Shown: piece after piece, positions 9,823 through 35,257 of the stretch
Numbering within the stretch: position 1 is the stretch's first letter
Layout: each line of letters starts with the position of its first letter
Source: an uncultured Gammaproteobacteria bacterium
GTDB taxonomy: Bacteria; Patescibacteriota; Patescibacteriia; Magasanikbacterales; JBBTXJ01
NCBI GenBank assembly: GCA_964636345.1
Contig: CAZWRL010000001.1
Coordinates: 235 to 64,234, forward strand
Direction of reading: 5' to 3'
DNA length: 64,000 nucleotides
Program-made: the position numbers and the translations under genes
Notes under the pieces: model-generated
What the model saw: the letters and a program-made list of their open reading frames with translations, nothing else
Told to the model about the DNA's origin: nothing
Database searches by the model: none

Positions 9823-9886
9823 CCAATATTTTAGCGACGGGGGATTTTTTGTGCTATAATTTTTGTATGTTACTTAACGTGCGTCA

Positions 9887-12670
9887 ATGACCGCACAGTT
9901 TCGTTATACAAAAGGGTTGCTTTTGGTTTTACTGCTATTTTTTAGTTTTTCAATAGTTGCTCCTGTTTACGCGGAAGCGCCGGCGGCAGGCGCTCCGGCA
10001 GCGAGTTCCAAAGATGAAGATGATGGTATCATTGCAGGCGCAGTGAAAGGTATTTTTGATTCTTTACTTGGGTTCATTGCCACCCTTTTCCTCATGGTTG
10101 CCAGTTTGCTCGCGGGTATTCTTGGCATGTTTATCTCCCTCCTTTTGAGCGTTGCCTCGTATAATAATTTTATTAACGCGGGCGGGGTTATTATCGGCTG
10201 GACGTTGACGCGCGACATTGTGAACATGTTTTTTGTCGCGGTATTTTTGGTTATCGCGCTGGGAACGATTATCGGCAAAAAGGAGTATCACATCAAAAAC
10301 GCGCTCCCCAAATTCGCGCTTGCCGCTATTCTGGTCAATTTTAGCCGGCTCATTCTTGGACTTATTATTGACGCGTCGCATGTCATCATGATGACGTTTG
10401 TCAATGCCATTCAACAGGTGGGGGGCGGTAATTTTTTGGCAGCGTTTAATATCCAAGCAAATTTTGAGCTGGCCAAAGACGCAGGGCTTTCCGGGTTTGA
10501 TCAACTACTCACGGCCATTATGAGTGTGCTTTTGGTTTTTATTGCCACGGTTATTGTGGGAATGTTCGCGCTCATGCTCGTTATGCGAATGGTTGGACTC
10601 TGGATATTAATTGCCGTGTCGCCCCTTGCGTTTTTTTTGCGGAGCTTGGATTCAAAAAGTTTTCAAAAATACTACGGTGATTGGGAGGGAAAGTTTAAGG
10701 TAAATGTTTTGATGGGACCGGTGATTGCATTTTTTTTGTGGCTTGCGCTTGCCATGTCGCAAGGCGGTAAATTATATTCCAGCGAGGTAAAGGGTGCATC
10801 GGACGCGGAAGCGCAAAAGAATTTGGAAGGAAAACCCGGACTGGTTGGTTCTACCATTTCTACCATTGAGGGTTTGAGTTCGTTTATTATTTCAGCGGCG
10901 TTGTTTTTGTTTGCGTATCAACAAGCGCAACAATTTGCCAAAGAGAGCGGTATACCGGGAATGGATAAGCTGGTGGGTAAGGCGGGTGATTTTATGAAGA
11001 AGGGCGCCAAGTATGTGAGCGGATATAAGGCGGCGCGCGCGGTTGGGTCATACACGGTAGGCGCCGGAGCGCGCTGGGCGTTGCGTGCGGGAGCCGGATT
11101 GGCGCGCGGTGCAGTGGGGCTTGGTAAAGTGGTTGCTGGCGGATATGCTGCTGGTGGTATGCGTGGCGCGGCGGGTGCACTTGGCGGTGCGGCGGCTGGC
11201 GCAGCACGCGCACTGCCTGGCGCAGCCATGGGAGCGGTTCGTGCGGCGGCCGTAGTTGGCGGATTGAAGGGCGCGGGTATCGCGCTTGCCGCTGGTGCCG
11301 CTGGTCTTGGCGCGACTGCAGCTGCGGGAATCAAGGGTAAACTTGGTGAAGTTGCCTCAAAGGATATAGAGAAGTTTGGCAAGGTTGACTCCAATTTGTC
11401 TAATGATCAGTTGTCTGATGTGATGCGAAGAGGCGGCGCGCGCGGTCAGGCGGCAGGATTGTCACTTGCAAAGCGCGGGTATCAATTTACAGAGACAGAG
11501 GCCAAGACAATGCAGGCATTGCTTGCCGGCAATGGGCCATCTGAAAAACAATTTAAGGATAGCTTAAAGAAAAGTGCGCCGCATCTTGCGTATGATCTTT
11601 CCGATCCGAAAAAACGCAAAGAAATGTTGCGTGATCCGGAAGTGCAAACGAATAATCTGCCACGCGAAGCGTTTGAAGGGCCACATGGCGAAGCGCTCAT
11701 GAGTGATATGCTTGAAGATTTGGGTTCAAAGGGTCTTGGTAAACAAATTAATAGTTTGCGTAACCCTGACGCGCGCAAGGCGGCGCTCAATGTGATGCGT
11801 ACCTCCACCATCCCCACCGCCTTTCGTGAGCGTGGTACGCATGTGGCGCGGCTTGGCGCAACAACCGACACTACCGCAGGGACTGTTCACGGTGAACTCC
11901 ACATGAAACGCGCCGCGCTTGCGGCGCTTCCCGCGGGTAATACGATGACGAATCGGCAGAAAAAGATTGATCTTGAGCGTGATATACGCAAGCTTGAGGG
12001 TGAAAAAAGCGCGCTTGAAACACGGGTGAGTGCCGGTGTTGATCTTGCCAAGTTGCACGCTCAAGAGACAGGTCGGCCAGATCAGACGGTTGCTTCTTTG
12101 TCATCTGCCGAGCAAGCATCGCTTCTACCCGATCTTGTTCAAGAAGTAGGAGTTGGGGGCTTGAAACCTGAAGCGCTCCAGAATCCTGAAGTGTTGGCGG
12201 CAATTGAGAAAACTGCTGGTGATCGGTTTGGCGATGCCATGAAAAAGTTGGATCCGGAAAAGATGCGGGTGGTTGTAACGGCGGTTGCCAATATTAATAG
12301 CGTCTCTGCCCCACCAGAGCAGGTGCGTGTTAAGGTGCGGGTATCCGGTGATTTTACCGGCGTTGAGGCAAATCCAGAGCGCGCTGTCATTATACAACAA
12401 GCAGTTTCAGTTATGAATTCTCGCGAATTGGCGCAGGTTAAATTAGATACACTGGGCGGCACGAGAGATGATTTTTATAGTGCGTTGACGCAGAATCCTG
12501 GGGCGGTTAGGGGATTGAATCGGGCGGAGGGGATGAGTCAAGCAAAACTTGATGAAATTGAAGCCGAGGTCAAAAAACGTGCCGTCACCGATCCCGCAAA
12601 ATTTGGTGCGCTTGCGAAGGAAATAGGCAGTTGGAATAAAGGAAAGGGTGGCGGAGGGCGAGGACCCTAA
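9887..12670 (+). CDS. VirB6/TrbL-like polytopic membrane protein with a long Gly/Ala-rich and coiled-coil C-terminal extension (T4SS-like channel component)
   Basis: Signal peptide, at least 6 TM helices in the first ~330 aa, a low-complexity GA-rich region, and a C-terminal charged/coiled-coil segment. Position ahead of VirB3/VirB4-like genes. Confidence 0.5.
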   Translation: MTAQFRYTKGLLLVLLLFFSFSIVAPVYAEAPAAGAPAASSKDEDDGIIAGAVKGIFDSLLGFIATLFLMVASLLAGILGMFISLLLSVASYNNFINAGGVIIGWTLTRDIVNMFFVAVFLVIALGTIIGKKEYHIKNALPKFALAAILVNFSRLILGLIIDASHVIMMTFVNAIQQVGGGNFLAAFNIQANFELAKDAGLSGFDQLLTAIMSVLLVFIATVIVGMFALMLVMRMVGLWILIAVSPLAFFLRSLDSKSFQKYYGDWEGKFKVNVLMGPVIAFFLWLALAMSQGGKLYSSEVKGASDAEAQKNLEGKPGLVGSTISTIEGLSSFIISAALFLFAYQQAQQFAKESGIPGMDKLVGKAGDFMKKGAKYVSGYKAARAVGSYTVGAGARWALRAGAGLARGAVGLGKVVAGGYAAGGMRGAAGALGGAAAGAARALPGAAMGAVRAAAVVGGLKGAGIALAAGAAGLGATAAAGIKGKLGEVASKDIEKFGKVDSNLSNDQLSDVMRRGGARGQAAGLSLAKRGYQFTETEAKTMQALLAGNGPSEKQFKDSLKKSAPHLAYDLSDPKKRKEMLRDPEVQTNNLPREAFEGPHGEALMSDMLEDLGSKGLGKQINSLRNPDARKAALNVMRTSTIPTAFRERGTHVARLGATTDTTAGTVHGELHMKRAALAALPAGNTMTNRQKKIDLERDIRKLEGEKSALETRVSAGVDLAKLHAQETGRPDQTVASLSSAEQASLLPDLVQEVGVGGLKPEALQNPEVLAAIEKTAGDRFGDAMKKLDPEKMRVVVTAVANINSVSAPPEQVRVKVRVSGDFTGVEANPERAVIIQQAVSVMNSRELAQVKLDTLGGTRDDFYSALTQNPGAVRGLNRAEGMSQAKLDEIEAEVKKRAVTDPAKFGALAKEIGSWNKGKGGGGRGP

Positions 12671-12679
12671 ATTTACGGT

Positions 12680-13984
12680 ATGATTCATTTTACTCCACAA
12701 AAGGTTGAAGAGCTTACCGCAAAAGCGTTGCCAAAGGCGCGTGAGCAGGCGGCTGTTTTGGTTCCCGTTGTTACGGCAACGGTTGGTGGTTTGATTGATA
12801 ATTCCACGCGGGCAAAGACACTCGGGAAGATGTTTGGGTGGGCTGCGCTTGGGGGCGCGAATTATCTGCGTGACATGCCGCAAGAAATTATTGAAACATT
12901 CGGCACGGCGGAAGATGTGGCGTATACCTTGTGTGACCGCGTGCTTGAGGCGCATGGTGATTTATTTAAACCGTTTGTTGAACATATTGATGCCATTCGC
13001 CGGCCATGGCAGGCGAAAGTGAAACAGGATGTGATGAAGGAGCGTGCTGCGGATGGGCCGGGAGCAGTGATTGCGCCGACGGTGGTATTGCCAGTGATTG
13101 CGCCGCTTGAAGAGGCGCCGGTGAATGGCGGTTTGAAACATCAAGATATTGCTGATCGGGTGAATGCGCGTTTGGCAATGGTGGAACAGTTGGCTGGCGT
13201 GACATTTACTAATCCCGACATGGCGGAACGCTTTCGCCATGCGTTGCGCTGCGCGCTTGGTGGCGTGAAAAAGTTGGATGAGGTGGCGCGACAACTTGCG
13301 CTGGTGCCGGATCGCGGCGGACTCGGCATGGGACAGGAGGAAGTGCAGGAGATTGTTGGTTTGCTTGAACGGCTTCATGCCAAAGAAGCGGAACAAGCAG
13401 AGCGGGCGCAGATGAAAAAACCAGAAACGCCGAAGAGTATGTTGCCGATGGTGGTTGGCGAGATTGCTTCATCATCTTTACCCTTCGACTCCGCTTCGCT
13501 TCGCTCAGGGACAAATATTACTCGCAATGACACGTCTCAAAAACTTGATGAATTGATTCAACAAAGCGCGGCGAATGATTCAGTTGATCTTTCGGCACTT
13601 GCTACCGGCGGCGCGGATCTTGCGGCGTCGCGCAAAATGCATGATGTGATTGCCCGGCCGCTTACCATGGGGCCGCTTGAAGAATTGCGCACGCTTGATG
13701 TGACGGATTTCAGACGTTTGGCAACCAAAGCCGGCGCGGCAGTGGATAAAATTAAACAAAAATTGGAATTATTGCGTGACGATGGCGTTGACCGGTACGC
13801 GGCGGGCATTAAGGCGTGGCGCGGAAGCCCGCTCTACTTTCTGTATGTGGATATGGTGCAGGAAGGATTGGTGGAAGGGCGCGCGCTGGAAGATATCGCC
13901 GCGTCAGATACCAATGATCCGGAGCGTTTAAGTGGCGAAGAACTGAAAAGTATAGTAGAATTAAATAAGTCATTACGATTTTAA
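12680..13984 (+). CDS. Hypothetical soluble protein (434 aa) inside the T4SS-like cluster
   Basis: ORF packed tightly between the VirB6-like and PrgI-like genes; no recognisable motifs. Confidence 0.45.
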   Translation: MIHFTPQKVEELTAKALPKAREQAAVLVPVVTATVGGLIDNSTRAKTLGKMFGWAALGGANYLRDMPQEIIETFGTAEDVAYTLCDRVLEAHGDLFKPFVEHIDAIRRPWQAKVKQDVMKERAADGPGAVIAPTVVLPVIAPLEEAPVNGGLKHQDIADRVNARLAMVEQLAGVTFTNPDMAERFRHALRCALGGVKKLDEVARQLALVPDRGGLGMGQEEVQEIVGLLERLHAKEAEQAERAQMKKPETPKSMLPMVVGEIASSSLPFDSASLRSGTNITRNDTSQKLDELIQQSAANDSVDLSALATGGADLAASRKMHDVIARPLTMGPLEELRTLDVTDFRRLATKAGAAVDKIKQKLELLRDDGVDRYAAGIKAWRGSPLYFLYVDMVQEGLVEGRALEDIAASDTNDPERLSGEELKSIVELNKSLRF

Positions 13985-15118: not shown

Positions 15119-15121
15119 TCT

Positions 15122-17197
15122 ATGGCATTTAAACCCGTACAATCTGGCGCGCTTGGAGCTACCGAACAGGTAAAGAATGTTGGGGCGGCATTAAAGACCA
15201 AAGCGGAGCATGAGGAGGCGACGCAGCAGGCGGCTGTTGACAAATCGCTTTCCGTGTTGCAGGAAGAGCGTGTGTACCGTGAGGGCGCGGTTTCGGTGCG
15301 CGATATTATCGCGCCGGCGGCGTTTAAGGTTGATCCCGGCATGGTGCATCTTGGGGATACGGTGCTCCGCACGATGTATGTGGTGACCTATCCGCGCTTC
15401 ATTAGTATTGGCTGGTTCACGCCGATTATCAACATGAATGTCACGGTTGACATTTCCATGTATTTTTATCCGATGAAATCCGAGATTGTGCTGAAGCAAC
15501 TGAAGAAAAAGGTGGGAACGCTAGAGGCAGAAATAAGTGCGGCGCGTGAGAAGGGGATGCCGCGTGATCCCGCGGCCGAGACCGCCATTGGTGACGTTGA
15601 ACGTTTGCGTGATTCATTAACGCAGGGCACCGAACATTTTTTCCAATTTGCGTTGTATGTCACCGTGTACGGCAAGGATCTGGAAACGTTAAATAAGGTC
15701 TCTGAACAGGTTGAATCCGTGTTTGCGAGTTCTTTGATTTACACGCGTCGTGTATTATATCAGGCGGAGCAAGGATTTAATTCAACCCTGCCGCTTGCCA
15801 ATGATGAATTGCAGGTCGCGTTTAACATGAATTCATCGCCGATTGCGTCGTCGTTTCCGTTCATGTCAAGCGATCTGACGTCTGACAGCGGCATTTTGTA
15901 TGGGATCAATCGGCACAATAACAGTTTGATTATTTTTGACCGTTTCAGTTTGCCGAACGCGAACGGGATTGTGTTTGCCACGTCCGGCGCGGGTAAAAGT
16001 TACGCGGTGAAATTGGAAATTTTGCGGACACTCATGATGGGCGTTGACGTTATTGTGATTGACCCTGAAATGGAGTACAAAAATTTGTCTGACGCGGTGG
16101 GCGGTTCGTATGTTAATTTGTCGCTTGCGTCAGAGAGCAAACTTAATCCGTTTGATTTGCCGCGTCCCACCACCGGCGATGCTACCACTGAAGATATTAT
16201 TCGGAGCGCGGTGATTACCACCAAAGGAATCTTGCGCGTGATGCTGGGGCAATTTTCCGTTCAGGAGGATTCATTGCTTGACCGCGCGCTATTGGAAACC
16301 TACGCCAAAAAAGATATTACGGCTGATTCTGATTTAACTAAATTGGGCCCCACCGACATGCCCATTTTGACTGACTTGCAGGATATTTTGGAGGGCATGA
16401 CCGATTCAAAAGATCTGGTTGAAAAATTGAAGAAGTATACGGAAGGCACGTTTTCCGGTTTGTTAAATTCCTACACTAATATCACGATGAATAATTTACT
16501 CGTGGTATTCAGTGTGCGTGATTTGGAAGATGAATTGCGGCCGGTGGGGATTTTCACGATTGTAAATTATATTTGGAATGTGGTGCGCTCCGAGCGAAAG
16601 AAGCGCGTGCTGGTGGTTGATGAGGCGTGGTGGCTCATGCAACATGAGGATTCCGCGCGGTTTATTTTCACGCTCGCGAAACGTTGTCGTAAATATTTTT
16701 TGGGCATTACCACCATCACGCAGGATGTGGCCGACTTTTTGGGGTCGCAGTACGGACGCGCGATTGTGACGAACTCGCAGATGCAATTGTTGTTGAAGCA
16801 ATCAACGGCCTCCGTAGATAAATTGGTTGAGGTTTTTATGTTAACGCAGGGCGAGAAGTTTTTACTGTTGGAGTCAGGAGTGGGCGAGGGTATTTTCTTT
16901 GCCGGACCGCGTCACGCCGCGATTAAAATTATTGCTTCCTATAATGAGGATAAATTGGTAACGACGAATCCGGAGCAGTTGCTCGCGATTGATAAATCCA
17001 AAAAAGCGTTTAAGGAGATGATACAAACAAAAGAGACGACGCCAGCGGCGAGTGCTCCCGCACCAGAACCGGCGCCTAAGGAAGAGCCGAAAGAAGAGCC
17101 GAAAGAAATGGCAGTGGAAACACCGGCTGAAGTAGTGGCCGTGGCACCGGAAGCCGTGGTTGCGCCTGCACCGGCGCCGGAAGCGCCTAAAACATAA
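15122..17197 (+). CDS. VirB4/TrbE/CagE-family ATPase, main body with Walker A and B
   Basis: Walker A FATSGAGKSY, Walker B RVLVVDEAWWLM, and a Pro/Glu-rich C-terminal tail. Confidence 0.75.
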   Translation: MAFKPVQSGALGATEQVKNVGAALKTKAEHEEATQQAAVDKSLSVLQEERVYREGAVSVRDIIAPAAFKVDPGMVHLGDTVLRTMYVVTYPRFISIGWFTPIINMNVTVDISMYFYPMKSEIVLKQLKKKVGTLEAEISAAREKGMPRDPAAETAIGDVERLRDSLTQGTEHFFQFALYVTVYGKDLETLNKVSEQVESVFASSLIYTRRVLYQAEQGFNSTLPLANDELQVAFNMNSSPIASSFPFMSSDLTSDSGILYGINRHNNSLIIFDRFSLPNANGIVFATSGAGKSYAVKLEILRTLMMGVDVIVIDPEMEYKNLSDAVGGSYVNLSLASESKLNPFDLPRPTTGDATTEDIIRSAVITTKGILRVMLGQFSVQEDSLLDRALLETYAKKDITADSDLTKLGPTDMPILTDLQDILEGMTDSKDLVEKLKKYTEGTFSGLLNSYTNITMNNLLVVFSVRDLEDELRPVGIFTIVNYIWNVVRSERKKRVLVVDEAWWLMQHEDSARFIFTLAKRCRKYFLGITTITQDVADFLGSQYGRAIVTNSQMQLLLKQSTASVDKLVEVFMLTQGEKFLLLESGVGEGIFFAGPRHAAIKIIASYNEDKLVTTNPEQLLAIDKSKKAFKEMIQTKETTPAASAPAPEPAPKEEPKEEPKEMAVETPAEVVAVAPEAVVAPAPAPEAPKT

Positions 17198-22857: not shown

Positions 22858-22947
22858 TGGCGGAGGAGGTGAGATTCGAACTCACGAGGGCTGTTAGACC
22901 CTACCTCGTTAGCAGTGAGGCGCACTAGACCACTATGCGACTCCTCC
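22858..22947 (-). tRNA. tRNA-Ser (anticodon GCU), long variable arm, encoded CCA
   Basis: Reverse complement folds as acceptor GGAGGAG/CTCCTCC, anticodon loop CUGCUAA, long extra arm and T-loop GTTCGAATC. Confidence 0.8.
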
Positions 22948-25620: not shown

Positions 25621-25711
25621 TGGCGGTGGGGGTGAGATTCGAACTCACGGTACCCTTTGGGGGTACGACAGTTTTCAAGACTGTTGCCATCAACCACTCG
25701 GCCACCCCACC
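25621..25711 (-). tRNA. tRNA-Ser (anticodon UGA), long variable arm, encoded CCA
   Basis: Reverse complement GGTGGGGTGGCCGAGTGG...anticodon loop CUUGAAA...GTTCGAATC...CCCCACC-G-CCA. Confidence 0.8.
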
Positions 25712-25824
25712 ATCATGCGAAGGTAGTATGGCACACCAGAGCCAAAAAATCAAGGCGCGAGGTAGTGTTGACAGAGCGCGCCTCGTGTGATAATCTCACT
25801 CTATCTTTGACAACTAAGGAGTCA

Positions 25825-27906
25825 ATGATGGATACGATACGTCGTCCACCGCCTATCGTGCGGAACACGTGGACGTGGGGCGACGTGGACGCGCCCCGAG
25901 ACGTCTCGTGCGAGAACATCCGCATGATGCTGCTCATCGCGCGGCTCGTGTGGGGTATCGACGGTGGTTCCGTGATCGCGGAACTTCCCGCTCCCTTCGA
26001 TCGGCACGCGCTTCTTGTGGACGCGCGGAATTTCGTGCCGCTCTGGGTGTACGTGCACGTGGCGCACGGGATTCACGACCTGGTAGGTCGCGTTGAGGGG
26101 ACGCAGTATCCTTTTGCGCCGGAGCGGTTTGCCGCGTTTGGCGTGGAAGGAATCCGGTTCCAGACATGGGGCGATCGGCGCAAGGCGCTTTCACAGCTCT
26201 TTGCTTCGTTCGCGAATCCTTTGCTCGGGTACCGTCGGGTGCCGGTTGAGAACTTGGATTTCAACTGGACAAAATCCTATCGCGTGGTGAGCGAGGGTTC
26301 CACATGGTGGATGCCGATGTTCTTCGCGCGAGAAGACATCCCGCTGGTGGATGACCTGCCATCGGATTGGTGGATTGTTGAGGGGCTCTGGCCGGGCATC
26401 GCCACCATCTTCGGTCTGCCGCCGGCGCGTGTAGTTCGACGCACACGGAGCTACGATCCGGTCCAGTTTTTCACGCAGGGTCGCAAGGTGCGTGACCTGC
26501 AGTGGCGGGTTACGGAAAAGGAAGACCGGGCAACCTTCATCATTAATGGTGAACGAGTTGGCGAGCGGGTGCATCTCCTGCCACGTGCGATTCGTGACGG
26601 CACATGGTGGTTCACGGGTGACGTGCTTTCGTCTGGCGAAGCGCCGGCATCGGTGGATATGCCAATGTTTTTGGCGTCGAAGCGGTGCATGATCGGCGAT
26701 TACCCTGTCTGTGAATCTCGTGACATGCTGTATGCACCCGAGTTGAGCCGTCGGGTACTGCAGGCAGAAATTCACGCGCGTCGGCCCATCGGGTACCGCA
26801 TGCGCGGCGACGCGGTTCAGGTGGCGGTTGAGTCCGGTCAGTGGGAAAAGATCGGTACCATAAACCTGCGGAATGTTTCCGTAGCGAGCCTCCCTACAGC
26901 CATCCGTTTCACGACAGACATACAGCTGCCTCATGGCGTACCGATTGTCACGAAGGGTGAGGTGTGGGGTCAGGATCTTGGGTTCAGCGCCCGGGTCGTG
27001 TGGGACAAACCACCGCCGTTTTGGCGGCGTGACCTCCGCACCGTGTGGCAGCGGCTGTTCCCCAATCAGCGTGTATTCGAGCGTCTGGCAGATCGGGCGC
27101 GTATCGCAGGGTTGCAACGGCAGCTCTCTACCACAGAATCCGAGCGGCGGCGTGTGGAGGATGCATTCCAGTACAAGCTGGCCGAGCTGGATACGCGCGA
27201 CCATGACCTCGCCGAGGCAACCGTTCGTTCGTTCCGGCGTTTTGCTTCGCGATTTCCTTCCGCGGAAATTGCACAGCAGGTGCTTGACGGGACGTATGTT
27301 AGTGAACGAGTGGAGGACGCGGTATTCCTGGTGATTGATGCGGCAGGTTCCACAAACGCCGTGCAGGATCGTATCGCACGCGCAGGGGTGGAGCATGATC
27401 TTGCAGAACAGGCAAAGATTTTTGCCGCCGCCTACAACGGCTTCATGACGTGGGCCAAAGAGGTAGTGCAACGGCACGGTGGTTGGGTGTTTGCATTTGA
27501 AGGCGATGCGATCAAGGCGGTTTTTGGACTGAACCAAAAATCTCCGCGCGCGCTCGCGGCGAATGATGCATTCAAGACCGCGCTTGATCTATTGGCGGGT
27601 ATTGGAAAGTGGCCGTCCGGCGAAGGGTTGGCGTTTGGTGCGCGCATCGGCATTGCGATGGGTACCACCCATTTGAGCTTGGTTGGTACGGGTGAAGATG
27701 CCTTTATGACACCCAATTCACGCGCGCTTAATGCCGCGGCGCATCTTGAGAAATCAAAATGTCGTCAACGGGGTGGCGAGATTGCCATTGATGGTAAAAC
27801 CGCCGCGTTCCTTGCGGAGCAGTTGAACGAATCACGACTTTTGGTTTGGCGCGCCGTTGAAGAGCTAGATGGTGCGCAGATGGAAATTGTGCGTGTTTCG
27901 GAGTAG
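25825..27906 (+). CDS. Class III nucleotidyl (adenylyl/guanylyl-type) cyclase with a ~500-aa uncharacterised N-terminal domain
   Basis: C-terminal cyclase-homology domain (FLVIDAAGST, FEGDAIKAVFG, RIGIAMGTTHLSLVG). SD aaggag before the ATG; GC-rich gene. Confidence 0.6.
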   Translation: MMDTIRRPPPIVRNTWTWGDVDAPRDVSCENIRMMLLIARLVWGIDGGSVIAELPAPFDRHALLVDARNFVPLWVYVHVAHGIHDLVGRVEGTQYPFAPERFAAFGVEGIRFQTWGDRRKALSQLFASFANPLLGYRRVPVENLDFNWTKSYRVVSEGSTWWMPMFFAREDIPLVDDLPSDWWIVEGLWPGIATIFGLPPARVVRRTRSYDPVQFFTQGRKVRDLQWRVTEKEDRATFIINGERVGERVHLLPRAIRDGTWWFTGDVLSSGEAPASVDMPMFLASKRCMIGDYPVCESRDMLYAPELSRRVLQAEIHARRPIGYRMRGDAVQVAVESGQWEKIGTINLRNVSVASLPTAIRFTTDIQLPHGVPIVTKGEVWGQDLGFSARVVWDKPPPFWRRDLRTVWQRLFPNQRVFERLADRARIAGLQRQLSTTESERRRVEDAFQYKLAELDTRDHDLAEATVRSFRRFASRFPSAEIAQQVLDGTYVSERVEDAVFLVIDAAGSTNAVQDRIARAGVEHDLAEQAKIFAAAYNGFMTWAKEVVQRHGGWVFAFEGDAIKAVFGLNQKSPRALAANDAFKTALDLLAGIGKWPSGEGLAFGARIGIAMGTTHLSLVGTGEDAFMTPNSRALNAAAHLEKSKCRQRGGEIAIDGKTAAFLAEQLNESRLLVWRAVEELDGAQMEIVRVSE

Positions 27907-27924
27907 CACACACCTCACGTATAG

Positions 27925-28860
27925 TCACGTGAGGTTTTTATTTAGTCCAACACCCGCCATACCGGCAAGCGCGCCGGTTACAAGAAAAATCAATGTGTCT
28001 GTACTGGTGAAGATAAGCGGGGTTTCAAAAATAAATGGTTGTGGTAAGAGGACGTGAAGCGCTACAAAGATGACGCCAGCAAGTAGGCCAAGGATGAGCT
28101 GATATTTGCGTTCACCCCACCATTCAATAAGGAGCGCCGAGGCGCCAATGGCAAAGACGTACGGGAAGAGTGGCGCGACGGGATGCGGCGGGACGATGAT
28201 AAAGTCCGCGACGCGTTCAGTCCAGGTAATGGCGTAGAGGGCGAGGAAAATTGCCGCAACAGTTGCGGCGCCACCCGGTGTGATGCGACGCGCGGCGGCA
28301 AGACATGCAATAAACGGCAGGATAAATAACACCTCGGCCCACGGAGAAAAGAAGGTTGCGTACAGGCCAATGGGATCAACGGGATGCACAATAAACCAAA
28401 GCAGACCAAGTACCACCGAAAGTTGTGTAAGCGTCAAGAGTGGGAATTTGCCGGTATCGTGGTTTTTGATTAAACGAAAGAAACCCCACGCGCTGATGGC
28501 GCCGCCAATCAGTGCGATGAGGTGTGGCGGACTCCATACCGCAAACGGCGTACTTAAATTTTCAATGCCAAACGTGCGATGCCACCACTCATCAAAGGGC
28601 GCCGAGAGAAACGTGAGCACAAGACCACCGAGCGCAATGTTGAGGAGCGGGCGCAGAGCAGAATGTTTTTTCCACAACCAAAGTTGCAACACGGCAGCAA
28701 CAAGGAGCGCGGTGTAGAGAATGTTGTGTGGAGGAATAAAAAAACTGTCACGTCCCATGAATACGTGCCACCAATCGTCCCAGAATAAACCAATCAACAT
28801 GAAAAGGTAGACGATAACGATGCCGATGAGCGTTTTTTGATTGATGGTTTTTGTGGGCAT
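27925..28860 (-). CDS. Polytopic integral membrane protein (hypothetical)
   Basis: At least 8 hydrophobic helices across 311 aa with Trp-rich loops (DDWWH, DEWWH). Confidence 0.45.
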   Translation of the reverse strand: MPTKTINQKTLIGIVIVYLFMLIGLFWDDWWHVFMGRDSFFIPPHNILYTALLVAAVLQLWLWKKHSALRPLLNIALGGLVLTFLSAPFDEWWHRTFGIENLSTPFAVWSPPHLIALIGGAISAWGFFRLIKNHDTGKFPLLTLTQLSVVLGLLWFIVHPVDPIGLYATFFSPWAEVLFILPFIACLAAARRITPGGAATVAAIFLALYAITWTERVADFIIVPPHPVAPLFPYVFAIGASALLIEWWGERKYQLILGLLAGVIFVALHVLLPQPFIFETPLIFTSTDTLIFLVTGALAGMAGVGLNKNLT

Positions 28861-28943
28861 AGTGATCTTTAGTATACACGATATGTATTTGACAGGCGAA
28901 TGATGGTATGGTTAGCTTGAGATACACATTGGAGGAGGGAGCG

Positions 28944-29447
28944 GTGTCACAACCAAAGAATGAAGGTCGGGTAGACCTGATTCAGGGATTGACCGAGGGG
29001 CAGACGGATCGTTTGTTGCGCGGCTTGGTTCCGCGCATGGTTGCCGATGGTATGGTGTTCATCACGGAAGGTGATTTTACTGACAGCATGTTTCTCTTGC
29101 TTGATGGGCAGGTGCGTGTAGTTTCGCACGCTGGCACTCCCGCAGAAGTGCTGGTGGCACGACGTTCTGTCGGCTCGATGCTTGGAGAGGTGAATTTTGT
29201 GGCAGGTGGATCGCGCTCGGCATCAGTCATTGCTGAGGGTACAGTGCTCGTGCTTGAGTTCACGAAGGCCCATGTAGAGGCAGTCACGGGCGTGGATATG
29301 GGTCTTGCGAAGCAATTGGCGTGGAATCTTGCGCGCATCATGGCTGAACGGTTGCGCAATACCACCACACAACTCTGGGATGCGCAGTCAACGCATGATT
29401 TGACTATTCACGCGTTTCGGCGTTTGCAGGCGGCCACGAGGCGCTAG
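28944..29447 (+). CDS. Standalone cyclic-nucleotide-binding domain protein (CAP effector-domain family)
   Basis: cNMP-binding signature GEVNFVAGGSRSASVIAEG. GTG start preceded by ggaggagg; ORF track gives 28908. Confidence 0.6.
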   Translation: MSQPKNEGRVDLIQGLTEGQTDRLLRGLVPRMVADGMVFITEGDFTDSMFLLLDGQVRVVSHAGTPAEVLVARRSVGSMLGEVNFVAGGSRSASVIAEGTVLVLEFTKAHVEAVTGVDMGLAKQLAWNLARIMAERLRNTTTQLWDAQSTHDLTIHAFRRLQAATRR

Positions 29448-29534
29448 AAGTACACCCCGACTTCCATCGGGGTTTTTTATTTCTCGCGCGTATGGTATAC
29501 TACATGTAGTTTGTTAATTTAACAATTATCGCCT

Positions 29535-29963
29535 ATGCGTATACGATCATCGGCAACCGTTGGTTTCGCAACGGTGGGTATGCTCCTTCTCTTAGGAGCA
29601 GGATGTTCAGCGTCAGTGGGCACTGGTAGCGCGGCTCCGGAAGTTGGAGCGCGCGTTTTGGCTCCTGATAATGGGAGCGTCTGGTGGGAGGGTACCATCG
29701 ATCAGGTTGATGGTACGATTTATACGGTGAAATTTAACGCGGATGATAAAATTGTTGCGCGGCCGCTCACGAATATCGCACCGTATCCGGCTGGCGCGCT
29801 TGCGGTTGAGGTTGGCGATGCGGTTGTTGGGGAATGGACAAGCGGAACGTTCTATGCGGGAACGGTGGCGGCTATTTCGGGTAATCTCGCAACGGTCGCG
29901 TGGGATGATGGCAGTGCACCATCCGAAGTAGCGACCAATCGGCTCACCAAGACCTTCAAATAA
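29535..29963 (+). CDS. Lipoprotein with two tandem ~35-aa repeats (W..G......Y.V.F..D..........I.P), possibly SH3/Tudor-like; fold assignment by eye only
   Basis: Signal peptide plus LLGAGC lipobox. Two repeats (VWWEGTIDQVDGTIYTVKFNADDKIVARPLTNIAPY and VGEWTSGTFYAGTVAAISGNLATVAWDDGS). Confidence 0.45.
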   Translation: MRIRSSATVGFATVGMLLLLGAGCSASVGTGSAAPEVGARVLAPDNGSVWWEGTIDQVDGTIYTVKFNADDKIVARPLTNIAPYPAGALAVEVGDAVVGEWTSGTFYAGTVAAISGNLATVAWDDGSAPSEVATNRLTKTFK

Positions 29964-34469: not shown

Positions 34470-34513
34470 TAACGCCATAGGTTGCCCTCTATACCATAGG
34501 ATGATAATATGCT

Positions 34514-35257
34514 ATGTATATGCCAGCTAAATTTATTTTTTCCGAGGATTGGAGCACCGCGAACCGTGCACAGTCCTGGTTAAAGGAGGTTGAACAATAT
34601 GGTAAGAATTCCTATGTTTTGGGTATACTGAATTTAATAGAGGGGTGCAAACCTCGCAGGGTTTTTGATGTTGGGTGTGGCAATGGATTTCCCTTTGCGA
34701 GTAGTTTACTAGAAAAAAACATTGAGGTACATGGTTGCGATCCCTCTCTCTCTCTCTTAAAAGAAGCAACACGGCAGTATCCAGCGCTTCGGTGGTATCA
34801 CACGGGTTACGAGCACATGGTAGAAAAAATTAATGGCGCACGTTACGATGTGGTGTATTGTTTGCGTAGTACGTGGTTATTCCCCAATATTATTTCCGCG
34901 CTTGGGAATATGCTTGAAATTACAAAACCCGGTGGTATAATAATTTTTGATATTATGAATAGTGATTCTCCAGAGATTAGTAAGTTTATAAAAACAATGA
35001 GAAAGAAAAAATATCGTACGTTTTTTAAAAATATTGTTAAACTTGTCCTCAATACAGTAGTGCGTACCAGCTATTCCTATGCTAGTGGCATAGATAAAAA
35101 TTATCCCGTTTCACCAAATCAGGTAGATACCTTTTTGATAAGAAAAAAATTCTTATTTAAGAAGTTTACTTTTAGTCAGATGTCGGGAGAAAATACCAGT
35201 TATGATCCGCTGGCATTTAGGATTTTATATTGCGTACAAGTTCCCGAGAATATTTAA
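34514..35257 (+). CDS. Class I SAM-dependent methyltransferase
   Basis: Motif I VFDVGCGNG; AT-rich gene relative to its surroundings. Confidence 0.55.
   Translation: MYMPAKFIFSEDWSTANRAQSWLKEVEQYGKNSYVLGILNLIEGCKPRRVFDVGCGNGFPFASSLLEKNIEVHGCDPSLSLLKEATRQYPALRWYHTGYEHMVEKINGARYDVVYCLRSTWLFPNIISALGNMLEITKPGGIIIFDIMNSDSPEISKFIKTMRKKKYRTFFKNIVKLVLNTVVRTSYSYASGIDKNYPVSPNQVDTFLIRKKFLFKKFTFSQMSGENTSYDPLAFRILYCVQVPENI

Follow-up and report, generated by a model that had tools for sequence, protein, structure and literature searches.

Two described systems serve first as references for the locus analysed here. In soluble guanylate cyclase (sGC), an H-NOX domain, a PAS/H-NOXA domain and a coiled coil precede the class III cyclase domain. 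In the Pycsar systems of anti-phage defence, a class III-type cyclase is found near a protein with a cyclic nucleotide-binding domain (CNBD). The uridylate cyclase BcPycC (PDB 7R65) recognises UTP by means of the residues Y50, D94 and R97, and PycTIR has an Asn, involved in pyrimidine recognition, at the position equivalent to S128 of CRP (PMC11224242). We have examined a stretch of 64,000 nucleotides (positions 235 to 64,234 of contig CAZWRL010000001.1, assembly GCA_964636345.1; this whole stretch is called the window hereafter) from a Magasanikbacteria-like bacterium of the candidate phyla radiation (CPR), in which the gene of a 693-aa cyclase is followed by those of a polytopic transmembrane (TM) protein and of a 167-aa CNBD protein. 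A preliminary description of this DNA had proposed either a cyclic-nucleotide signalling unit or a Pycsar-like defence unit. The former proposal agrees with what was found, a class III cyclase beside a CNBD protein with an intact binding cassette, adjacent to each other in five of six relatives. The latter does not hold, as the matches to PycC are generic, no effector is fused to the CNBD, the genes form no operon and they are not strictly co-conserved. We consider it probable that the locus is a cyclic nucleoside monophosphate (cNMP) signalling module regulated by a small ligand, and not a defence system of the Pycsar type. The cyclase and its stand-alone receptor are a rare and lineage-restricted pair that would follow ordinary second-messenger logic.

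The three genes lie where the preliminary description had placed them, with coordinates and sizes confirmed by the open reading frames (ORFs). The cyclase gene (25825-27906, + strand) opens with an ATG that has a Shine-Dalgarno sequence (AAGGAG) 3-6 nt upstream, and this start is backed by the N-terminal alignment of its homologues, of 694-699 aa. There are only five homologues (58-100% identity, one of them annotated as Candidatus Magasanikbacteria) among 5.8 billion proteins. No Pfam family exceeded its threshold on the full-length 693-aa protein, the C-terminal 218 aa giving 18.9 bits for Guanylate_cyc (PF00211), under the gathering cut-off of 21.9. The family profile matched CyaB of P. aeruginosa (E 2.8e-5) ahead of BcPycC (6e-4), and the best single-sequence match in the PDB was 7R65 (E 0.0016). 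In spite of the sub-threshold Pfam score, class III homology is supported by the CyaB profile match together with the alignment with canonical relatives, and the C-terminal region (residues ~471-693, 27235-27903, +) is, judging from these alignments, a divergent class III cyclase domain.

The catalytic residues were read from alignments with the canonical relatives, CyaC and BcPycC, taking for the window residues the roles that the corresponding CyaC positions have as those of a class III cyclase. Both metal-binding Asp announced by the preliminary description are there, D505 within VIDAAGST and D561 within FEGDAIKAVFG, and both are invariant in the five homologues. In a wider alignment of 14 sequences D505 is invariant (14/14), and the relatives that bear a cyclase domain have their second metal Asp in register with D561. 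T629 (seven residues before the catalytic Asn), the Asn itself (N636) and R607 are invariant too. At the position of the canonical Lys that specifies the substrate, four residues before the second Asp, the window protein has A557 and the other four have Gly. An invariant His (H640, in LNAAAHLE, with N636 kept) stands in the place of the transition-state Arg, where BcPycC has Lys in the HMMER alignment. The distant relatives retain Lys, Asp, Asn and Arg. The residues of specificity, whose inspection the preliminary description had recommended, could thus be read and, with both the Lys and the Arg replaced, they point to no particular nucleotide as product. In the alignment this family also has 12 aa inserted behind the first metal Asp. 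The cyclase gene has dN/dS values of 0.08-0.24 and its catalytic domain of 0.08-0.14, equal to those of the neighbours VanW and HSP20. This domain is the best conserved part of the protein in the comparisons with three of the relatives' loci (numbered L001, L003, L004, L005, L006 and L027 in what follows), with 73-79% identity to L001, L003 and L006 against ~51% for the sensor region; versus L005 the order is reversed (65% and 82.5%). The high conservation, with dN/dS like that of housekeeping neighbours, indicates that the catalytic domain is under selection.

In the ~500-aa N-terminal region of the cyclase the preliminary description had recognised no motif. It is true that no Pfam family is found there, but the region is no longer unexplained, since profile searches and AlphaFold2 (AF2) models identify it as a sensor joined to a transducer, as is typical of signalling cyclases. 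When a profile restricted to the N-terminal 415 aa, free of cyclase residues, was run against 1.84 billion cluster representatives, it retrieved 11 distant proteins (E 2e-9 to 7e-4). Of nine that were checked, seven have a bona fide Guanylate_cyc domain (Pfam) at the C terminus, four of these with an HNOBA-type coiled-coil linker; one is HisKA-like and one is without any Pfam match. A later homologue search with the sensor profile, over 8000 candidates, added one further relative among the matches listed (P0026), in which the sensor domain stands ahead of a GAF-GGDEF arrangement (hhalign 97.4% over residues 8-179). The variety of fusion partners therefore identifies a modular sensor domain and not an orphan extension.

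The fold of this region was taken from an AF2 model built on 14 N-terminal sequences; a full-length model from five sequences (pLDDT 37.6) was discarded. The predicted structure of the N-terminal domain (residues ~21-215, 25885-26469, +) was recognised as an H-NOX fold, within the H-NOX/V4R/Bet3 group. It is followed by a beta-rich middle domain (residues ~225-395, 26497-27009, +), delimited on the AF2 secondary structure (pLDDT 86-96), in which residues 255-355 (~100 aa) are an insertion peculiar to the five-member family according to the alignment. Long helices in the AF2 models then form a helical or coiled-coil transducer (residues ~398-470, 27016-27234, +), and the equivalent region of the distant relatives matches the C-terminal part of Pfam HNOBA. 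Over the 14 members of the sensor family the invariant residues are N31, G106, F146, N147, T149, D177 and G187, with an FNxTK motif roughly where the YxSxR of H-NOX would fall (an approximate placement). No His is invariant in the 14-member alignment, which makes a canonical His-ligated heme unlikely. On the strength of the model, the sensor appears to be a previously undescribed, unnamed domain of the H-NOX/V4R/Bet3 superfamily.

The other member of the pair, the CNBD protein (28944-29447, +), starts at a GTG at 28944 preceded by the Shine-Dalgarno sequence GGAGGAGGG, and its database copy (P0006) likewise has 167 aa. Pfam cNMP_binding (E 5.9e-13) is its sole family, and the phosphate-binding cassette is intact (GE...RSAS, keeping the Gly-Glu and the Arg-Ser-Ala residues). 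A Pfam-level family scan found neither a TIR, a TM nor a helix-turn-helix (HTH) domain and, as only ~22 residues extend beyond the C-helix, there is no room for an HTH. The preliminary description was therefore right in taking the protein as essentially nothing else than a cNMP-binding domain. Having no effector domain, it must act through protein-protein contacts or by nucleotide buffering. Against PDB sequences, PKA-R, CRP and PycTIR were matched at comparably weak levels. Where CRP has S128, the window type (RLRNTTT) and L001 have Thr and L006 has Ser, a reading of low confidence, as it comes from a hand alignment of a region where BLASTP opens a gap. The gene exists as two deeply divergent allele types, with 52% amino acid identity and dS of 1.6-1.9, when the flanking genes show dS of ~0.5-0.9. 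The window allele is 71% identical to that of L003 and 52% to those of L001 and L006 (compared over 28944-29447 of the window, 3333-3836 of L001 and 3825-4328 of L006), and the allele types of the CNBD do not co-vary with that of the sensor.

The relatives keep the locus within a syntenic housekeeping block, LemA, TPM, SpoU, tRNA-Ser, cyclase, HSP20 and VanW, with up to three variable genes (TM protein, CNBD protein and a Tudor-like lipoprotein, in this order) between the cyclase and HSP20. Among the relatives whose contigs show a flank, the upstream one (TPM-SpoU-tRNA-Ser) is shared by L003 and L005 and the downstream one (HSP20-VanW) by L001, L003, L004 and L006. All three variable genes are present in the window and in L001. 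L027 has the TM and CNBD genes on a contig that ends before the lipoprotein position, and L006 has both of them and lacks the lipoprotein. In L003 and L004 the TM gene is missing, with CNBD and lipoprotein genes present, while in L005 it is the CNBD gene that is missing, and the lipoprotein gene comes immediately after the TM gene. Cyclase and CNBD are thus neighbours in L001, L003, L004, L006 and L027, five of the six relatives whose contig reaches the CNBD position. The idea of three co-conserved genes, on which the preliminary description had made its defence unit depend, is contradicted by L003, L004 and L005. The cyclase, moreover, occupies the same chromosomal position in the relatives whose contigs show a flank, and a housekeeping adenylate cyclase conserved in relatives had likewise been named there as adverse. 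The distant cyclase relatives are surrounded by housekeeping genes, for example those of NusA, trigger factor, ribosomal protein L32 and TsaD, and have no CNBD neighbours. A clean empty site was not obtained; the scan based on TPM gave one Patescibacteria locus (L021), with LemA-TPM and no conserved synteny downstream.

The history of the cyclase gene can be followed by comparing its regions with those of the relatives. The gene is GC-rich relative to the window (51%), as the preliminary description had noted, although the figure is 58.8% and not ~62%; its first 1245 nt reach 60.5%, with a GC content at third codon positions (GC3) of 0.70. While the flanking genes have 87-93% protein identity to L001 and L003 and those of L005 only ~68%, the sensor part is ~51% identical to L001 and L003 and yet 82.5% to L005. 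Sliding identity, both of protein and of nucleotides, places one breakpoint at ~25.78 kb, shortly before the start codon, and the other at ~27.2 kb, around residue 465, where the transducer meets the catalytic domain. Synonymous divergence agrees with this, since dS of the sensor is 0.44 to L005 versus 2.4-2.8 to L001 and L003, and that of the catalytic domain is 0.66 to L001 and 1.7 to L005. Along the same lines, the GC3 of the swapped segment (0.70) is that of L005, the other alleles having 0.53-0.56. The GC-rich patch (25780-27200, +, ~1.4 kb) is a recombinant segment from a divergent, L005-like lineage that comprises sensor, linker and promoter-proximal region. The locus is a recombination-prone, variable spot in which every gene is under purifying selection (dN/dS ≤0.29).

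The preliminary description had also taken the position of the cyclase next to a tRNA-Ser as a sign of an acquired island. The tRNA is indeed there (tRNA-Ser(UGA), 25621-25711, -, found by ARAGORN and with 60 bits by Rfam tRNA), 113 nt from the cyclase start, and marks the upstream edge of the locus without being a functional part of it. A tRNA-inserted island had nevertheless to be discarded, because the cyclase is found 5' of the tRNA and not at its 3' side, as such an island would be, neither an integrase among the neighbours nor a tRNA-derived att-like repeat was found, and the adjacency of tRNA and cyclase is conserved in L003 and L005. A viral origin was rejected as well, there being no relatives in IMG/VR or among GenBank phages. 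A second tRNA-Ser (GCU; 22858-22947, -) is located 2.7 kb upstream of the first, and the pair is found also in L003. In L006 an HNH endonuclease gene (29-580, -) is directly upstream of the cyclase in place of the tRNA-Ser and SpoU of the window; no tRNA was found there, and the junction is the same as the 5' recombination breakpoint of the window.

The third gene, that of the TM protein (27925-28860, -, 311 aa), is on the opposite strand and codes for a polytopic membrane protein, as had been described. It matches no Pfam or NCBIfam family and contains no CNBD. It carries a duplicated D(D/E)WWHxxxGR(D/E)xF(F/W)xPPH motif plus HPVDPIGLY and PPHPV, and is 88% identical to the protein of L001. 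Its distant homologues (L011-L020, 25-41% identity) come from metagenome contigs where the neighbouring ORFs differ from locus to locus, none of the ten with a CNBD neighbour. At one of them (L013) a stand-alone class III cyclase domain of 224 aa (1926-2597, -; Guanylate_cyc E 1.8e-9) lies 3.3 kb from the TM homologue, probably by coincidence (one of ten loci). From its distribution across the relatives and the distant homologues we rejected the TM protein as an effector; it is a variable neighbour, probably outside the signalling pair.

As for transcription, a promoter-like element read by eye precedes the cyclase (25768-25794, +; TTGACA, 15 nt and the extended -10 TGtGATAAT) and may be its promoter; a consensus scan passed over it, the spacer being 15 nt. 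Between the convergent cyclase and TM genes there is a terminator-like hairpin (27912-27935, +; a 9-bp stem, then TTTTATTT), and another follows the CNBD gene (29454-29473, +; a 7-bp stem, then TTTTTATTT). The TM and CNBD genes point away from each other, their start codons being ~85 bp apart. Because of the opposite strands and of these hairpins, the three genes do not constitute an operon. Apart from the tRNAs, Rfam detected no regulatory RNA in 22.5-33 kb.

What could such a locus do? In a defence system of the Pycsar (or Pucsar) kind, infection would trigger the production of cCMP, cUMP or cGMP, and the CNBD and membrane proteins would be the halves of a split effector that kills or arrests the cell. 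PADLOC gives weak matches to PycC and to PycTIR-CNBD; those to PycC are generic, the same models giving much stronger values to canonical cyclases with this sensor domain (1e-14 to 5e-22 against 4.1e-8, the best value here). BcPycC is the best single match in the PDB, and yet the family profile places CyaB above it. The window protein resembles BcPycC in that the residue four places before the second metal Asp is not Lys and the one two places before it is acidic (E559 versus D94); on the other hand, the three UTP-recognising residues become V503, E559 and A562, so that the acidic position alone is similar, and the CNBD has Thr or Ser and not the Asn of PycTIR at the S128 position (with the low confidence already mentioned for this hand alignment). 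Replacement of alleles and variable gene content would suit a defence locus. The CNBD protein is, however, devoid of TIR or TM domains and the TM protein of a CNBD; either gene can be missing (TM in L003 and L004, CNBD in L005), the TM homologues elsewhere do without a CNBD gene next to them, and the transcription units are separate and not co-oriented. The neighbourhood is moreover a housekeeping one in which no other defence genes were found, no gene exceeds the dN/dS of 0.29 and there are no viral relatives. We consider the defence explanation extremely improbable. The membrane protein enters also in a housekeeping alternative, in which the CNBD protein would dock on it and gate a transport or enzymatic function. 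The divergent arrangement with its short intergenic distance, the presence of both genes at four loci (L001, L006, L027 and the window) and the conserved His, Asp and Trp motifs of the TM protein, which suggest a cofactor or ion site, are in its favour. It is difficult to reconcile with the CNBD genes that have no TM gene (L003, L004), the opposite case of L005, the ten distant TM homologues, or the lack of co-variation of the allele types (in the comparison with L001, 88% identity for the TM protein and 52% for the CNBD protein), and we regard it as very improbable.

A different doubt concerns the enzyme itself. The catalytic domain could be a degenerate pseudo-cyclase, inactive and serving as a ligand-binding scaffold or regulator, next to a CNBD protein that is unrelated or senses cNMP from another source. 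In all five homologues other residues occupy two of the six canonical catalytic positions, the Guanylate_cyc score is below the gathering threshold and the 12-aa insertion follows the first metal Asp. Against this, neither metal Asp varies, nor do the Asn and the RIGI-motif Arg, and the domain is the best conserved part of the protein (versus L001, L003 and L006) with dN/dS of 0.08-0.14. Besides, non-canonical residues at these positions are known from active cyclases, such as BcPycC with its Ala and Lys, and no other cyclase is found within the 64-kb window. An inactive scaffold appears to us rather unlikely.

There remains the reading that we prefer, a ligand-regulated signalling module. The 693-aa protein would be a soluble sensor cyclase in which a ligand-binding domain is followed by the beta-rich middle domain, the helical transducer and a class III catalytic domain that dimerises. 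Binding of the ligand, which is likely to be small and hydrophobic and unlikely to be a His-ligated heme, would be relayed through the helical transducer and alter the output of the cyclase, and the 3',5'-cNMP produced would be read by the adjacent 167-aa CNBD protein. Several observations weigh against this picture. The replacements of Lys by Ala or Gly and of Arg by His suggest that the enzyme could be weak, inactive or of unusual specificity. The sensor fold comes from the 14-sequence AF2 model, in which three of five models have pLDDT of ~59, and is unaccompanied by sequence matches to H-NOX or V4R, since the 14 members match no Pfam family at E up to 1 and the sensor profile matches no PDB sequence at E up to 10. 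The adjacency of cyclase and CNBD is confined to close, syntenic genomes, which makes it weak evidence of a functional link, and L005 has the cyclase but lacks a CNBD gene there. Nor are the two genes co-transcribed, each having its own terminator-like hairpin and with the TM gene on the opposite strand between them, and no partner of the CNBD protein was identified.

A bolder version would make of the locus a bacterial counterpart of sGC in the CPR. The H-NOX-superfamily pocket would sense a gas, a lipid or a small molecule derived from the host, and the rewired class III domain (Ala/Gly, Glu559, Thr and His) would synthesise a non-canonical, possibly pyrimidine, cNMP for its dedicated CNBD receptor, with the sensor alleles being recombined to retune sensing, for example in the interaction between episymbiont and host or with phages. 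Stated in full, this is a long shot, decidedly unlikely as a whole.

Other features of the region are worth recording. The lipoprotein of the variable segment (29535-29963, +, 142 aa) is predicted from a signal peptide and a lipobox (LLGAGC), and its Agenet/Tudor-like matches are weak (E 3.5e-4 and 9e-3, neither reaching the threshold). Downstream of the VanW block, L003 has an insertion (12353-13199) of a 65-aa ORF and an AbiEii-family toxin gene; the slot that roughly corresponds to it in the window is occupied by a methyltransferase (34508-35254). Farther upstream in the window there is a TraG/VirB4-like P-loop ATPase (15119-17194, +; Pfam P-loop_TraG, E 1e-26), near which a protein of 930 aa without Pfam family is encoded (9878-12667, +), and this region may correspond to a type IV secretion or DNA-uptake apparatus. 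From ~35000 to 62000 extends a long, mostly co-oriented cluster of glycan/envelope biosynthesis that includes a DegT aminotransferase, a GT2 glycosyltransferase, a UDP-glucose dehydrogenase-methyltransferase fusion, an asparagine synthase-like protein and a YfhO/DUF6044 membrane protein.

Signalling by cNMPs in the genome-reduced and mostly episymbiotic CPR bacteria appears to be little studied, and one literature search turned up no relevant paper. Unusual at this locus are the new sensor domain with its sGC-like arrangement, the rewiring of the catalytic pocket and the exchange of sensors between lineages. The sensor domain is fused to class III cyclases, to a HisKA-like protein and to a GGDEF protein. 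Its exchange together with the linker, exactly at the catalytic junction, amounts to a natural domain swap and fits the current modular models of signal transmission in cyclases. There is also a practical lesson, namely that weak PADLOC matches to PycC together with a nearby CNBD protein are insufficient to call a Pycsar system.

Compared with known systems, the CNBD protein has the beta-barrel, phosphate-binding cassette and long C-helix common to CRP/FNR and stand-alone CNBD proteins (PDB 3GYD, 5D1I, 2PQQ), but differs in having no winged-helix, kinase, channel or acetyltransferase domain. The sensor differs from the V4R and AraC-type Arabinose_bd proteins (DmpR/PoxR, VirS, CdpR) in that its output is a nucleotide cyclase and not a transcription factor, and it does not keep the Zn-binding Cys cluster of V4R/PoxR. 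With Pycsar the locus shares the proximity of a class III-type cyclase and a CNBD, the absence of the purine Lys and the acidic residue at -2, but no effector domain is carried by the CNBD, there is neither an operon nor a defence island, and a large sensor module stands upstream of the cyclase domain. Canonical sensor adenylate cyclases of the CPR, such as MCX6819974.1 of Candidatus Adlerbacteria (P0011), have a homologous sensor (E 2e-9 with the profile of the sensor alone) and the same order of sensor, linker and cyclase. These differ in keeping the Lys, Asp, Asn and Arg and passing the Pfam threshold, and are without the ~100-aa beta-rich insertion, the 12-aa insertion and the CNBD neighbour. 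Finally, the 693-aa protein has the module order of sGC, with no sequence similarity to H-NOX, no conserved His and a beta-rich middle domain. It is presumably a homodimer, with residues that fit neither the guanylate cyclase (Glu/Cys) nor the adenylate cyclase (Lys/Asp) pattern. The occurrence of an sGC-like order of modules in bacteria bears on the origin of the sGC architecture.

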